Assembly: GCA_049322655.1 (NCBI GenBank)
Contig: JBMORP010000006.1
Coordinates: 79,863-126,409, forward strand
From: Patescibacteria group bacterium
Lineage (GTDB): Bacteria; Patescibacteriota; Microgenomatia; UBA1400; PJMF01
Direction of reading: 5' to 3'
DNA length: 46,547 nucleotides
Below are positions 3,550 through 21,036 of this stretch, in pieces (within the stretch, counting starts at the first letter, position 1; the number at the start of each line of letters is the position of its first letter). A model generated the notes under the pieces. It was not told where the DNA came from. It worked only from the letters and a program-made list of their open reading frames with translations, and made no database searches. Made by a program: the position numbers and the translations under genes.

Positions 3550-3558
3550 TGCTATAAT
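3550..3558 (+). promoter_or_regulatory. Extended -10 promoter (TGcTATAAT) for the ileS leader, TSS about 3565-3566
   Basis: TG-n-TATAAT at 3550-3558, immediately upstream of the T-box leader. No clear -35. Confidence 0.7.
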
Positions 3559-3675
3559 CACTTTCAGTTATTTAAAGTCGTTAGAGTTTGTCATCAGCAG
3601 ACAAGACGTTAGAAGAAATCCTTAACAGGAGATTAGACCTAACCGGGTAAGCCCGTAACAGCTGGAATTAAGTAT

Positions 3676-3840
3676 TAGACTTACTGCTAAATAAAAATCA
3701 TAGTTCTTTCACATCTATTTAAGAATTTATAGCATTTTCTTCTTTATCAAGGAGACATGGCTACTATCGGCATCAAAAAATGCCAAAATTCATTAAATAT
3801 ATGTAAAATTGACAATAATTTTTATTTAGCAGTAAGTCTA
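3676..3840. repeat. Perfect 23-bp inverted repeat enclosing 119 nt (Stem III position of the T-box)
   Basis: TAGACTTACTGCTAAATAAAAAT (3676-3698) is the exact reverse complement of ATTTTTATTTAGCAGTAAGTCTA (3818-3840). Confidence 0.95.
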
Positions 3841-3870
3841 TTGAGAGGTTGGTACCTTTCCTAAACCGGG

Positions 3871-3918
3871 AAGCCTTTTCATTTGATACTATTTAGTATT
3901 AGATGTAAAGGCTTTTTT
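3871..3918 (+). terminator. Intrinsic attenuator terminator of the ileS leader
   Basis: About 20-bp hairpin, arms 3871-3890 and 3895-3914 (one U-U mismatch, two G-U pairs), ending in a U-run at 3913-3918. Its 5' arm overlaps the antiterminator 3' strand. Confidence 0.85.
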
Positions 3919-3937
3919 AGTACTAGGAAAAACAACA

Positions 3938-6772
3938 ATGAAAAAACAATATAATTTCAAACAAACTCCAGACCTACCAAAGTTAGAAGAGGAAGTTTTA
4001 AAGTTTTGGGAAGAAAACAATACTTTTCAACGATCGATAGATCAACGAGATAAAAATAATGCTTATGTTTTTTTTGATGGACCACCTTTTGCCACCGGTC
4101 TACCTCACTATGGTCATATTGTTGCTAGTACGATGAAAGATATTGTACCTCGTTACTGGACCATGAAAGGTAAAAGAGTTGAACGCAAATGGGGTTGGGA
4201 TTGTCATGGTTTACCAATCGAAAACATCGCTGAAAAAGAGCTGGGAATTAAACGTAAAAAAGAGATTGAAGAGTTAGGGGTTGAGAAATTTAATGAGATT
4301 TGTCGATCCAAGGTTTTGTCTTATGTTGATGATTGGAAAAAAATCATTGCTCGTTTGGGCCGTTGGGCTGATATGGAAAACGACTATAAAACCATGGATT
4401 TGAGTTTTATGGAATCTGTTTGGTGGGTGTTTAAGCAACTTTATGATAATGATTTGGTTTATGAGGATTATCGTAGTTTGCATATTTGTCCTCGTTGTGA
4501 AACCACTCTTTCTCAATCAGAAGTAGCAGAAGGTTATAAAAATGTTAAAGACATTTCAGTCACAGCTGAGTTTAAGATTAAAGATTTTTCAAAGTTTCAT
4601 CATGGTGAAGAACAAGTCTTCTTTTTAGCTTGGACTACTACTCCTTGGACATTGCCAGGAAACTTTTTATTGGCAGTGGGGCCGGCAATAAATTATGTGC
4701 TAGTTAGGGGTAATGAAGATGGTAAATTATATGTGTTAGCAGAAACAAGATTGGCAGCAGTATTTGGTGAAGAAGATGACCATGAAATAGTGGCTAGTTA
4801 TCAAGGTCAAGAGTTAGAAGGTTTAAGTTATGAACCTTTATTTCCTTATTTTAAAGACACGGAAAATGCTTTCAGGGTAGTGGCGGCTGAGTTTGTAGCA
4901 ACTGAAGAAGGAACTGGGATTGTTCATATTGCTCCAGGTTTTGGTGAAGATGATTTTCGAGTTGGACAAAAAGAGGGCGTGAAACTAATTCAGCACGTTA
5001 ATATGGATGGCCGATTTATCGAAGCAGTTACTGATTTTCCAGATATGGAAGTTAAACCCAAGGAAGATCCTCAGCGGACTGATATTGAAATCATTCGTTA
5101 CTTGGCAAAAAAAGATTTGTTGTTTAGTAAGAAGAAACTTGAACATAGTTATCCTCATTGTTGGCGGTGTGATACCCCGCTACTCAACTATGCTACCGGT
5201 AGCTGGTTTGTGAATGTAAATAAAATTCACGAAAAATTACTCAAATTAGCTGATGATATTAATTGGTTCCCAGAGCATATTAAACAGGGACGTTGGGGAA
5301 ATTGGTTAGCCGGAGCTCGTGATTGGTCGATTAGTCGACAACGTTATTGGGCCAGTGTGATTCCAGTTTGGCGCTGTGAATGTGGGCAAACAAAAGTTTA
5401 TGGTAGTGTTAAGGATCTAGAACAAGATAGTGGTCAAAAAATAACAGATCTTCATAAACATACAGTTGATAAAATCACTGTCCCTTGTAGTTGTGGTCGA
5501 CAGATGAGACGTATCCCCGATGTATTAGATACTTGGTTTGATAGTGGTTCTATGCCATATGGTCAGGCTCATTATCCTTTTGAAAATAAACAAGAATTTG
5601 AAAACAATTTTCCAGCCGAGTTTATTGGAGAGGGAGTTGATCAAACTAGAGCTTGGTTCTATTACTTGCATGTAATTGCCGGAGGGATCAGAGAAACCAA
5701 AGCTTTCAAAAATGTGATTGTTAATGGGATTGTTTTGGCTGAAGATGGTAAGAAAATGAGTAAACGTTTGCAAAATTATCCTGATCCTGTTTTGCTAATT
5801 GATAATTATGGTACTGATAGTTTGAGAATGTATTTAGCTAGTTCCCCAGTGTTAAAAGCAGAAAATCTTAATTTTAGTGAAAAAGAAGTGGCCGATATTC
5901 GTCGTAAAACCTTTGTGATTTGGTGGAACATCATTGGCTTTTACAAAAGTTTTGTCAAAGATGAGGTTATTACTCGACCAGCTAGTCGACCAGTTCATCT
6001 TTTAGATCAGTGGTTATTGAGCAAAATGCAAACTGTGATCGAACAGGTGACTAAATATTTAGATGGCTATGATTTGGTCAGAGCTAGCAGAATTTTGTTG
6101 GATTTTGTTAACGAACTTTCCACTTGGTATCTTCGTTTGAGCAGAGACAGACTAAAAGAAGGTAATGATTCAGCTGCCGAACAGGTGTTTGGCTATGTGC
6201 TTTATACTCTGGCTCAACTTTTTGCTCCATTTGCTCCTTTTTTTGCTGAAATGGTTCATCATGCGTTAGTTGATGAGCAAACCTCAATTCATCTCACTGA
6301 TTGGCCAGGTTTTGACTCAGCTTTGCAGGATAGAGAGCTAGAGGAACAAATGAGTTTGGTTCAGAAAATCATTGAAGTAGGTCACTCAGCTAGAAAACAA
6401 CAGGGAGTTAGGTTGAGACAACCACTATCCCTAGTAACTGTGCGGTTGGCCAAAGAAACTAAGAGTGATGTGTTAGGTAAATTCACCGAATTAATAAAAG
6501 CAGAACTTAATGTTAAAAGCGTAAATTGGACAATTGCCTCTGATGATCAGTTAGTTGTTGAATTTTCTTGGGAGTTAACAGCTGAACTCAAGGCTGAAGG
6601 TGAAGCTAGAGAAATCATGAGAACGATTCAGAATTTACGCCGTCAAGCTGGTTTATCAATAAGTGAACAAGCTGTTGTTAGTTTGCCTGATTGGCCAGCT
6701 GTTTGGCAAAATGAAATCGAGACTAAAACCTCAACAAAACTAGTGAAAGGTGATAGAGTTGAGTTACAATGA
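3938..6772 (+). CDS. ileS: Isoleucine-tRNA ligase, type 2 (eukaryote/archaea-like, mupirocin-insensitive class)
   Basis: FFDGPPFATGLPHYGH, GWDCHGLPIE, WTTTPWTLP editing motif, GTGIVHIAPGFG, DWSISRQRYW, GKKMSKRLQNYPDP. Confidence 0.97.
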   Translation: MKKQYNFKQTPDLPKLEEEVLKFWEENNTFQRSIDQRDKNNAYVFFDGPPFATGLPHYGHIVASTMKDIVPRYWTMKGKRVERKWGWDCHGLPIENIAEKELGIKRKKEIEELGVEKFNEICRSKVLSYVDDWKKIIARLGRWADMENDYKTMDLSFMESVWWVFKQLYDNDLVYEDYRSLHICPRCETTLSQSEVAEGYKNVKDISVTAEFKIKDFSKFHHGEEQVFFLAWTTTPWTLPGNFLLAVGPAINYVLVRGNEDGKLYVLAETRLAAVFGEEDDHEIVASYQGQELEGLSYEPLFPYFKDTENAFRVVAAEFVATEEGTGIVHIAPGFGEDDFRVGQKEGVKLIQHVNMDGRFIEAVTDFPDMEVKPKEDPQRTDIEIIRYLAKKDLLFSKKKLEHSYPHCWRCDTPLLNYATGSWFVNVNKIHEKLLKLADDINWFPEHIKQGRWGNWLAGARDWSISRQRYWASVIPVWRCECGQTKVYGSVKDLEQDSGQKITDLHKHTVDKITVPCSCGRQMRRIPDVLDTWFDSGSMPYGQAHYPFENKQEFENNFPAEFIGEGVDQTRAWFYYLHVIAGGIRETKAFKNVIVNGIVLAEDGKKMSKRLQNYPDPVLLIDNYGTDSLRMYLASSPVLKAENLNFSEKEVADIRRKTFVIWWNIIGFYKSFVKDEVITRPASRPVHLLDQWLLSKMQTVIEQVTKYLDGYDLVRASRILLDFVNELSTWYLRLSRDRLKEGNDSAAEQVFGYVLYTLAQLFAPFAPFFAEMVHHALVDEQTSIHLTDWPGFDSALQDRELEEQMSLVQKIIEVGHSARKQQGVRLRQPLSLVTVRLAKETKSDVLGKFTELIKAELNVKSVNWTIASDDQLVVEFSWELTAELKAEGEAREIMRTIQNLRRQAGLSISEQAVVSLPDWPAVWQNEIETKTSTKLVKGDRVELQ

Positions 6773-18651: not shown

Positions 18652-20043
18652 TTACGATAGCATACTTGTTAAATGTTGCTCAACTGCCTCAACAGTGAGT
18701 CGTTCTTGGTGAGTATTGTCTCTGTTTCTTAAAGTGACAGTGCCATCTTCTAAAGTTTGGTAATCAACTGTTAAACAATAAGGAGTCCCGATTTCATCTT
18801 GAGCTAGATAGCGTTTACCGATATTACCTCTTTCGTCCCAAGTGACATTGGTTTTTTTCTTTAATTGATCGAATATTTCTTGAGCCTTACTCACAATGTC
18901 TTCTTTATTTTTAACTAGAGGAAAAACAGCAATTTTATAAGGAGCAAATTTGGCTGGTAATTTTAAGTAAGTTCGGTTGTTTTCTTGATCAACAGTATAA
19001 GCTTGGGCTAACATGGCCAAGAAGATTCGATTAATGCCAAAAGTTGGTTCGATGACATGGGGAATAAATTTACGTTGTGGATCATATGGATCGGTATAGC
19101 GTAAATCAACACCAGATTTTTCCATGTGATTTCTTAAATCATAATCAGTTCGATAAGCTAAGCCGAACATTTCTTTGAAGCCAAAAGGAAATTCATAATC
19201 AAGATCTTCAGTTCTGGTTGAATAATGAGATCTTTCTTCGTCAGTGTGCTGACGCCAACGCAGGTTAGTATTACTTAGGCCTAGAGATAAAGCGAACTCT
19301 TGCATGACTGTTTGCCATTTTTCAAAGAATTTTTCCCAGTTTTCTTTTTCTGGGTCAAAAAAGTATTCAAATTCTGCTAGGTTAAACTCTAAGGTGCGAA
19401 AAATGAAGTTACCCAAAGTGATTTCATTACGGAAAGCCTTGCCAGTTTGGGCGATACCAAATGGTAACTTTGGCCTCATGGTGTTTAGGACATTCTTAAA
19501 GTTCACAAACATCCCCTGGGCAATTTCTCCACGCAGATAAGCCAAAGATTGTGATTCTTCAACAATGCCGATATTGGTTTCAAAGAGTAAGTTAAATGAT
19601 CTCACTTCTGTCCAGGCTTGGTTACCACAAGTCGGGCATTTGATTTTTAAATCATGAATAAGTTGAGTTAATTCTGCTGGAGTTTTTCCCTCAACTTTTA
19701 GTTCTTCACCTTGTTTGGCGGTAAAGTCTTCAATTAGGTGGTCAGCTCTAGTTCTAGTTTTACAAGTTTTACAGTCAATCAAAGCATCAGTAAAACTAGC
19801 AGTGTGACCAGAAGCCTCCCAAACTTTTGGACTCATTAAGATTGAAGTGTCTAAACCATACATATCCTGACGTTTAGTGACAAAAAACTGCCACCAGTGG
19901 TTAAGGATATTACGGAGTAATTCCACGCCCAATGGCCCAAAATCGTAAGTATTGGCTAATCCTCCATAGATCTCTGAACCAGGAAAAATAAAGCCTCTAC
20001 GTTTGGCTAAAGCGATGACATCATTCATGGTGGTTTTTGACAT
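18652..20043 (-). CDS. glyS: Glycine-tRNA ligase, alpha2 (eukaryote-like) type
   Basis: KRRGFIFPGSEIYGG, YDFGPLG, WEASGH, LRGEIAQG, GIAQTGKAFRNEIT, HVIEPTFG, QDEIGTPYCLTVD. Confidence 0.96.
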   Translation of the reverse strand: MSKTTMNDVIALAKRRGFIFPGSEIYGGLANTYDFGPLGVELLRNILNHWWQFFVTKRQDMYGLDTSILMSPKVWEASGHTASFTDALIDCKTCKTRTRADHLIEDFTAKQGEELKVEGKTPAELTQLIHDLKIKCPTCGNQAWTEVRSFNLLFETNIGIVEESQSLAYLRGEIAQGMFVNFKNVLNTMRPKLPFGIAQTGKAFRNEITLGNFIFRTLEFNLAEFEYFFDPEKENWEKFFEKWQTVMQEFALSLGLSNTNLRWRQHTDEERSHYSTRTEDLDYEFPFGFKEMFGLAYRTDYDLRNHMEKSGVDLRYTDPYDPQRKFIPHVIEPTFGINRIFLAMLAQAYTVDQENNRTYLKLPAKFAPYKIAVFPLVKNKEDIVSKAQEIFDQLKKKTNVTWDERGNIGKRYLAQDEIGTPYCLTVDYQTLEDGTVTLRNRDNTHQERLTVEAVEQHLTSMLS

Positions 20044-20091: not shown

Positions 20092-20121
20092 AAAAAACCC
20101 CAGCAATTATTGTTGCTAGGG
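20092..20121 (-). terminator. Intrinsic attenuator terminator of the glyS leader
   Basis: 9-bp stem with a CAAUAA loop followed by UUUUUU. Its first four nucleotides (CCCU) are shared with antiterminator helix A1. Confidence 0.85.
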
Positions 20122-20231
20122 ACCCTACCGGGCGGTTCCACCCTGATTCTTCGGAAAACTCCAAAGCTCTTTAAGTTTTTTAGTATTGTTTTCCTGAATG
20201 TCAGGCTCGCTGGCCAAGGGCGAGCAATACT
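20092..20231 (-). promoter_or_regulatory. Minimal Gly T-box riboswitch (transcriptional)
   Basis: Canonical T-box AAUCAGGG-UGGAACC-GCCC (20148-20130) pairs with GGGU-CCCU. Terminator CCCUAGCAA/UUGCUGGGG plus U6. GGC in a hairpin loop (20215-20213). Lies upstream of glyS. Confidence 0.88.
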
Positions 20232-20237
20232 AGGGTT

Positions 20238-20266
20238 ATTATATTTTTTTCTTGTTAAAGAAGCAA
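20238..20266 (-). promoter_or_regulatory. sigma70 promoter for the glyS leader, TSS about 20231
   Basis: TTGCTT (20266-20261), 17-nt spacer, TATAAT (20243-20238). Confidence 0.8.
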
Positions 20267-20274
20267 GCTCTAGG

Positions 20275-21036
20275 TTATTTTAGTGCTTCAAAGTATTTTA
20301 TTAAGCCCTCATTTTCAACTGTATCGATTATTAAATCAGCAGCTTGTTTTAAGTCGTTGACAGCATTACCCATAGCGACTTTAGTAGCAACTGAGTTAAA
20401 AAGATGTAAATCATTATGTCCATCGCCTATGCCAATGGTATGCTCTTTTTTAACACCCAGCCTTGAAAGTAACTCAGTAATAGCATGTTCTTTAGTTGCT
20501 TCAACATTAACGATATGCAGATCTCTACAACCAGGCTTTTGTGAAACAACCATGACACAGGTAATTCCATCAACTAAATCTAGTTCATTACGAAGTTGGT
20601 TTGCTAATAAATAAGGAACAAAACTTTGAGATAACCAATTTACTTTTATTGAGAGGTCAAAATCTTTTGGATAAATTCCACCATTAAAATAATCATCTTC
20701 TGTGTAGTCATTAAAAATTAATTTCTGTTCACCATTTTTAGAAAAAATAGTAATTACTTTTTCTAAAGCTTGTTGAGTAATATCTTTTTGCCAGACAATT
20801 TCGCCTGTCTTAGGATTACAAATTTGTGTGCCACCGGAAATAATACATAAATCTTCTAGGTTGAGAGTTTGAATAATATCTTTGGCAAAAGTCCAGCACC
20901 TACCTGTCGCTGCAGCAAGAAAGTATTGTGATTTTAAATCATTAACTACAGAAACAAGTTTTTTACTTGGAAGTTTCTGTTCTGGAGAATCAACTGCTGT
21001 TCCATCTAAATCAAAGATTATAGCTTTAGTTTTCAT
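20275..21036 (-). CDS. Cof-type HAD-IIB hydrolase
   Basis: FDLDGT motif I, AATGR, ATKEHA, GIGDGHNDLHLF, VAMGNA. Confidence 0.92.
   Translation of the reverse strand: MKTKAIIFDLDGTAVDSPEQKLPSKKLVSVVNDLKSQYFLAAATGRCWTFAKDIIQTLNLEDLCIISGGTQICNPKTGEIVWQKDITQQALEKVITIFSKNGEQKLIFNDYTEDDYFNGGIYPKDFDLSIKVNWLSQSFVPYLLANQLRNELDLVDGITCVMVVSQKPGCRDLHIVNVEATKEHAITELLSRLGVKKEHTIGIGDGHNDLHLFNSVATKVAMGNAVNDLKQAADLIIDTVENEGLIKYFEALK

Follow-up and report, generated by a model that had tools for sequence, protein, structure and literature searches.

A probable glycine T-box riboswitch with a 50-nt decoding domain in the glyS leader of a Pacebacteria-like CPR bacterium

The closest family to the leader described here is that of the glycine T-box riboswitches preceding glyQS and glyS in Bacillota (B. 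subtilis, G. kaustophilus, O. iheyensis; RF00230). According to current models, transcriptional T-boxes need a platform on the tRNA elbow, short Stem I's need Stem II, and a K-turn is needed by nearly all T-boxes (PMC7583486). In T-boxes of the B. subtilis type, disabling the elbow platform abolishes readthrough and is accompanied by a 60-fold loss of affinity, and truncated Stem I's that are devoid of Stem II bind tRNA poorly (PMC7583486). Concerning glycine, the GC-rich codon pairing probably makes Stem II unnecessary, and a K-turn-free glycine T-box is regarded as conceptually plausible, because a flexible linker follows Stem I (PMC7583486). The translational ileS T-boxes of Actinobacteria (M. 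tuberculosis, N. farcinica) possess an "ultrashort" Stem I and need Stem II with its S-turn, the IIA/B pseudoknot and a K-turn to hold the tRNA (Sherwood 2015, reviewed in PMC7583486). In TBDB, the class II model is used for Actinobacteria and, beyond these, solely for class-I hits the Stem I of which is truncated. Our full-text literature search, the coverage of which is incomplete, such that absence is unproven, returned no T-boxes in CPR/Patescibacteria and no glycine T-boxes with a short Stem I.

The window, i.e., the whole stretch of DNA that was analysed (46,547 nucleotides of contig JBMORP010000006.1), contains on its minus strand a gap of 231 nt between the gene for a Cof-type HAD hydrolase and that for a glycine--tRNA ligase, in which the glyS leader is situated. 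All elements of the original prediction are present there base for base, between 20266 and 20092. Together with the flanking genes, these are:

21036-20275, minus strand: upstream gene, Cof-type (HAD-IIB) hydrolase
20261-20266, minus strand: -35 hexamer TTGCTT, matching TTGACA at 3/6 positions
20238-20243, minus strand: -10 hexamer TATAAT, 17-nt spacer after the -35; predicted transcription start at about 20231
20225-20231, minus strand: 5' strand of the junction-closing helix P1, AGUAUUG; all 7 pairs change on both sides among 10 leaders
20206-20224, minus strand: specifier hairpin P2, CUCGC / loop CCUUGGCCA / GCGAG; all 5 pairs covary
20213-20215, minus strand: specifier codon GGC (Gly) in the apical loop of P2; invariant in the 9 protein-found leaders
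20193-20205, minus strand: hairpin P3, CCUGA-CAU-UCAGG; the stem covaries, the loop is not conserved
20189-20192, minus strand: junction strand AAAA between P3 and P1; AAAA in 4 leaders, AAAC in 1, UUAC in 1
20182-20188, minus strand: 3' strand of P1, CAAUACU; covariation among 10 leaders
20167-20181, minus strand: single-stranded linker AAAAAACUUAAAGAG, 15 nt, with a purine-rich 3' end (AAAGAG); matches the Rfam consensus before Stem III
20149-20166, minus strand: Stem III, CUUUGGA-GUUU-UCCGAAG, aligned to Stem III of RF00230; 4/5 modelled pairs covary
20118-20144, minus strand: antiterminator AGGG[UGGAACC]GCCC-GGUA-GGGU-CCCU; high-posterior match to RF00230, invariant in 10 leaders
20092-20121, minus strand: intrinsic terminator CCCUAGCAA-CAAUAA-UUGCUGGGG followed by U6, 9-bp stem; CCCU is common to helix A1
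18652-20043, minus strand: regulated gene, dimeric-type glycine--tRNA ligase of 463 aa (NF003211, 615 bits; TIGR00389, 522 bits)

A scan of the whole window with Rfam at curated thresholds gave no match. When the check with Infernal that had been proposed for the leader was carried out as a local RF00230 search with permissive filters, the 3' half of a T-box was recognised at 30.8 bits (E = 3.5e-5), i.e., below the gathering threshold of 93; Stem III, the T-box sequence and the antiterminator were aligned with high posterior, and the Stem I part of the alignment failed. The glyS leaders of four Clostridia, taken from the same protein scan as positive controls, scored 99-118 bits, whereas minimal leaders of the kind described below reached 32-45 bits in the same test, such that the low score of the window leader is attributable to its 5' domain. 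Since canonical glyS leaders pass at thresholds that the window leader does not reach, standard annotation misses the design. The four Clostridia controls (L057, L060, L064, L069) possess specifier strands of the GAA-GGA-G type, not GGC.

The antiterminator is composed of helix A1 (AGGG/CCCU), a 7-nt bulge UGGAACC (20140-20134) and helix A2 (GCCC/GGGU). With -19.5 kcal/mol for the terminator plus A2 hairpin versus -9.7 kcal/mol for the antiterminator, the terminator is favoured by about 10 kcal/mol, and the energies in the window fit the usual default-off logic of T-boxes. Codon and bulge are 74 nt apart, a distance similar in magnitude to that of canonical leaders. The portion UUAAAGAG of the linker is conserved in the clade of the window, and an AAGGAG lies about 40 nt further downstream of the terminator.

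The organization of the leader agrees with that of the Bacillota glycine T-box in the gene target, the glycine specifier, the lack of Stem II, the single-stranded linker of about 15 nt, the Stem III with flanking purines, and the A1/UGGA-bulge/A2 antiterminator that competes with an intrinsic terminator. Despite this similarity, the entire decoding domain differs: Stem I comprises about 100 nt in Bacillota, whereas the whole decoding domain of the window leader consists of 50 nt, arranged as a three-way junction of P1, P2 and P3 with the codon in an apical position. Within P2, CUCGC (20224-20220) pairs with GCGAG (20210-20206) and encloses the 9-nt loop CCUUGGCCA (20219-20211); P1 is also present in the single-sequence minimum free energy structure of the leader. 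The Bacillota codon is situated in a side loop with an S-turn, whereas that of the window lies in the apical loop and is followed by C, not by the usual purine. The Bacillota domain further possesses an AG bulge, a distal loop platform and a K-turn; in the 50 nt of the window domain there is no AG bulge, and the internal specifier loop with S-turn and the distal double T-loop platform are likewise absent. Concerning the K-turn (GA motif) at the base of Stem I, neither a 3-nt bulge nor tandem G.A pairs occur at the P1/P2 junction of the window; the same parse finds the K-turn in 14 other minimal leaders. Only the 15-nt unstructured linker separates P1 from Stem III, with no Stem II or IIA/B pseudoknot. 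The window leader accordingly has the discriminator-side features by which T-boxes are recognised, departs from three of those on the Stem I side, and remains under the Rfam threshold.

With the actinobacterial ileS T-boxes the leader has in common an apical specifier on a short hairpin and the lack of an elbow platform; those T-boxes, however, sequester the Shine-Dalgarno sequence, whereas the window leader has no sequestrator and ends in a terminator with U6. A K-turn elaborated into a three-way junction is known as the k-junction (Lilley laboratory), in which the tandem G.A pairs are kept. In the window, too, a three-way junction is found where a K-turn is expected, but tandem G.A pairs cannot be drawn in it, and a hidden, reversed or k-junction K-turn was therefore rejected for this leader. 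Two further candidates concerning the loop were discarded as well: it is not an anticodon-like 7-nt U-turn loop, since the loops comprise 8-9 nt and GGC does not occupy positions 34-36, and UGGCCA does not act as a self-complementary dimerisation loop, since the palindrome is gone in leaders with UUGGCAA.

Relatives were reached via similarity of the GlyRS protein alone, i.e., independently of the RNA. The amino acid identity of GlyRS to that of the window amounts to 89% in L001, 83% in L082 and L083, 82% in L086 (a protein named Candidatus Pacebacteria in NCBI), and 81% in L087. All five exhibit the same layout directly after an invariant TATAAT, and UGGC, UGGA and the antiterminator are unchanged in them. 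The helices, by comparison, are altered on both strands: among the orthologous leaders, GUAUUG/CAAUAC of P1 changes to GUGUUG/CAACAC, GUCU/AGAC or GUUUCU/AGAAAC, CUCGC/GCGAG of P2 to CUCAC/GUGAG or UCGU/ACGA, and CCUGA/UCAGG of P3 to CUGG/CCAG, CUAAUUU/AAAUUAG or UCUGAA/UUCAGA, with a long hairpin in L087.

In an alignment of ten leaders, which was fitted to the model, all modelled pairs of P1, P2 and P3 carry compensatory changes, 95.7% of the cells are paired (79.8% with shuffled and 33-53% with slid partners), and double changes occur in 20 of the 29 pairs, a number reached by none of 500 shuffles. A MAFFT alignment of four leaders, which was not fitted to the structure, yielded 95.9% paired versus 30-49% slid; with six leaders, MAFFT misplaced P3 and P1 of L086 and L087, and the covariance-model alignment was used instead. 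The covariance model built from four leaders recovers leaders on which it was not trained, namely L087 (87.5 bits) and L086 (74.4 bits), as well as L124, L092 and L211 (53-72 bits). The three-way junction of the original prediction is thus upheld by covariation in all three helices across the glyS leaders of relatives, and conservation both of GGC and of the helices, which was looked for in the orthologous leaders, was found.

Concerning the promoter, TTGCWT-17-TATAAT is kept in all five orthologous leaders of which the -35 region was read (window, L001, L082, L083, L086), and TATAAT is invariant, 7-9 nt before P1, in all six (6/6). Of the consensus promoter that had been claimed, TATAAT, the 17-nt spacer and the conservation are borne out, whereas "consensus" is an overstatement for the -35 hexamer with its 3/6 matches; the latter is also the reason why the promoter scan did not list it. 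In each ortholog, the upstream coding sequence stops a few bases before the conserved -35, although the gene itself differs: a HAD hydrolase in the window and in L001, RecO in L082-L086, and neither of these in L087. Given the different upstream genes and the conserved promoter immediately next to the junction, a long Stem I can be excluded. The claim that no room is left for a normal Stem I therefore stands, the promoter being followed so closely by P1 and preceded by the ends of different genes, and the objection of a start far upstream of the predicted one (about 20231) fails on comparative grounds. A search for transcript evidence of the start or of termination returned only sequencing runs of DNA or of unrecorded type. 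In the window and L001 alone, RecO and the glyS leader are separated by the HAD-IIB hydrolase gene, whereas RecO abuts the leader in L082-L086; 471 bases of the hydrolase gene (20495-20967) are missing from a related strain in run X5.

The apical loop has the consensus YN(U)UGGCMA in the nine leaders that are free of loop bias, among which U-GGC and the final A are constant. In 8/9 leaders, a second U precedes GGC; L211, with the loop CCUGGCAA, possesses one U only, and a 5-bp helix with the anticodon loop is therefore not universal. ARAGORN did not find a tRNA-Gly(GCC) on the examined loci, and the E. coli tRNA-Gly(GCC), used with 100% identity to annotated genes, serves as stand-in for that of the host. 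Its anticodon loop is UUGCCAA and its discriminator base U73, such that UUGGC of the leader is complementary to G34-A38 and UGGA to the UCCA end. By nearest-neighbour energies, UUGGC/GCCAA amounts to -5.2 kcal/mol, compared to -2.6 kcal/mol for GGC/GCC alone; the gain is of the order of the 60-fold affinity that is lost on disabling the platform (PMC7583486). The assignment as a glycyl T-box agrees with the downstream gene for GlyRS, with the invariance of GGC in nine leaders, and with the UGGA bulge, which calls for a tRNA with U73, as possessed by the E. coli tRNA-Gly(GCC).

The design is not restricted to the three-way junction. A search of metagenomes with the pattern TTGGCMA-N45-75-GGGTGGAACCGC returned 120 stretches, 17 of them real leaders and most of them chance matches in GC-rich coding DNA. 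Since the search pattern biases the loops, pattern-found loops were not used to judge loop conservation, and GGC in the minimal leaders of CPR bacteria from this search is to be read as the only codon that it could find. A textbook K-turn is present in 14 leaders (13 pattern-found ones and L007), and in addition in the protein-found L213; besides a C-stem that covaries and a bulge of 3 nt, it has tandem G.A pairs as well as an A.G or U.G pair, and above it a 3-bp stem is capped by CUUUGGCAA. These K-turn minimal leaders, among them L007, L213, L091, L108 and L129, correspond to a Stem I cut off just above the K-turn. They share with the window leader the loop (of the CUUUGGCAA type), the linker, Stem III, the discriminator, the terminator and the downstream glyS, whereas the clade of the window has neither the bulge nor the G.A pairs and possesses an insertion on the 3' side that forms a third helix.

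Within this clade, P2 directly adjoins P1 at the 5' side; the insertion on the 3' side folds into P3 in six members, whereas it is a single strand of 7-11 nt in L124, L211, L127 and L092; P3 is absent from these four leaders and hence dispensable. The same loop is kept in protein-found leaders of both further forms, i.e., in L211 (bulge form) and in L007 and L213 (K-turn form). In the GlyRS tree, which is not a species tree, the junction form constitutes one clade (100/99 support), the leader was lost in its sister, L002/L003, L124 with its bulge form takes the outgroup position in the Pacebacteria clade (100/99 support), and the K-turn forms L007 and L174 are placed in neighbouring CPR clades. 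The Pacebacteria clade has replaced the K-turn by a 3'-side bulge or a third hairpin, and L127 and L092 suggest a second, independent loss of the K-turn. The proposal of a possibly undescribed class survives the literature search, with the refinement that the window leader belongs to a wider family of minimal glycine T-boxes, the majority of which keep a K-turn, and represents a variant specific to its clade.

The majority of CPR GlyRS loci are devoid of any T-box. In L002, L003 and L212, glyS directly follows RecO after spacers of about 7-28 nt and the leader is absent, from which it follows that the T-box was deleted more than once in the Pacebacteria clade, and, these being close relatives, that the leader is dispensable.

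Other readings of the locus have to be weighed against these data. Transcription could begin further upstream and include a conventional long Stem I with sequence in or beyond the upstream gene, as the Stem I alignment of cmscan, stretched up to 20300, might be taken to indicate. This is very improbable: in its stretched part, the alignment is of low posterior and contains mispaired positions, the HAD gene stops at 20275, and orthologs with RecO or other upstream DNA share the promoter and the junction. Just as little credence is given to a leader that senses tRNA-Ala by means of the overlapping alanine codon GCC/GCA and the conserved A (GCM-A), although GCM is followed by A in every leader and fits the rule of codon plus purine better than GGC-C does. 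Here, the regulated gene is that of GlyRS, and reading both GCC and GCA would take two different tRNA-Ala isoacceptors, whereas GGC is constant; moreover, the UGGA bulge needs U73, which tRNA-Gly has, whereas tRNA-Ala carries A73.

The remaining explanations accept the T-box discriminator and dispute what the 5' junction does. The leader has no parts for binding the tRNA body, it is wholly lost in the close relatives L002, L003 and L212, and C takes the place of the purine after the codon of the window, as might be expected of a decaying T-box, the 3' part of which would persist as a constitutive or weakly tRNA-responsive attenuator while the junction no longer reads the anticodon. An unselected domain would not covary, however, whereas the junction helices are kept by compensatory changes, UGGC is invariant in every leader, and the same loop is found on the K-turn hairpins of distant lineages; decay is thus unlikely. 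Alternatively, the junction, which is unlike any described Stem I and the A-rich strand of which is conserved in the clade, might bind a protein or a small ligand instead of the anticodon, alongside a normal discriminator. Since L124, L127, L092 and L211 either lack P3 and the junction strand or have unrelated ones, whereas the GGC loop is what all forms conserve and complements the anticodon loop of E. coli tRNA-Gly(GCC), we consider such a ligand decidedly improbable.

On the basis of the sequence comparisons, we consider it very probable that the glyS leader of this Pacebacteria-like CPR bacterium works as a T-box riboswitch that senses tRNA and reads it with an arm of 50 nt, and we regard it as likely that it is, more precisely, a transcription-attenuating glycine T-box with a minimal decoding domain. 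Concerning its mode of action, we infer tRNA binding, extended pairing and the role of the junction as follows. Transcription would start at about 20231, and the first 50 nt would fold into the three-way junction, in which the P2 arm presents GGC in its 9-nt apical loop. The anticodon of tRNA-Gly(GCC) would pair with this loop, and A37/A38 of the tRNA would probably add one or two A-U pairs with the conserved U or UU that precedes GGC. The free UCCA end of an uncharged tRNA would pair with the UGGA bulge and stack on helix A1, whereby the weaker antiterminator would be stabilised and RNA polymerase would read into glyS; with charged tRNA, the terminator (20121-20092) would form. The junction, or the 3'-side bulge in the relatives, presumably takes over the job of the K-turn, i.e., aims the linker and the discriminator at the acceptor end.

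More tentatively, and with somewhat less than an even chance in our estimation, these leaders may be fully functional co-transcriptional sensors of about 110 nt, in which tRNA-Gly is held by two contacts and the junction or bulge fills the geometric role of the K-turn. The two contacts would be a loop-loop helix extended from 3 to 4-5 bp via A37/A38 and the bulge that binds the NCCA end. Against this design stands that, in T-boxes of the B. subtilis type, loss of the platform abolishes readthrough, and that truncated Stem I's bind poorly when Stem II is lacking (PMC7583486). If true, a T-box would for the first time be shown to work although elbow platform, Stem II and K-turn are all absent, and this would answer the question, raised in PMC7583486, whether any T-box functions without a K-turn. 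A conserved natural leader that does without all three would set a lower bound on the RNA needed to sense tRNA charging during transcription, and would offer structural studies and synthetic biology a scaffold of small size. Apart from this, the leader indicates that T-box regulation exists in CPR/Patescibacteria, where the standard models miss it.

Some further leaders were noticed along with those described above. A K-turn minimal glycine T-box in L129 (546-700, plus strand) precedes the gene for a GlyRS that groups with Bacillota (100/100 support; about 58% amino acid identity to Clostridia-type proteins), such that the minimal design occurs outside the CPR bacteria as well. Another one, in L100 (913-1130, plus strand), with the loop CUUUGGCAA, a UGGA bulge and a terminator, does not precede glyS, but the gene for a formyltetrahydrofolate deformylase (PurU, TIGR00655, 397 bits), which suggests that the minimal design also controls one-carbon/glycine-linked metabolism. 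In L104 and L174 there is no obvious U-tract terminator after the antiterminator, and a hairpin is situated near AGGAGG and the start codon; these K-turn leaders may act on translation rather than on transcription.

Within the window itself, the leader of an isoleucine--tRNA ligase gene (3550-3937, plus strand; the gene starts at 3938), in which no T-box was found with Rfam at E = 0.1, contains the T-box-like sequence GGUUGGUACC at about 3848-3857, with UGGU fitting A73. A short hairpin with AUC-A in its loop occurs at about 3588-3604, and a 23-bp inverted repeat is situated between the two. Given this hairpin and GGUUGGUACC, the genome seems to use apical-loop specifiers in two T-boxes.
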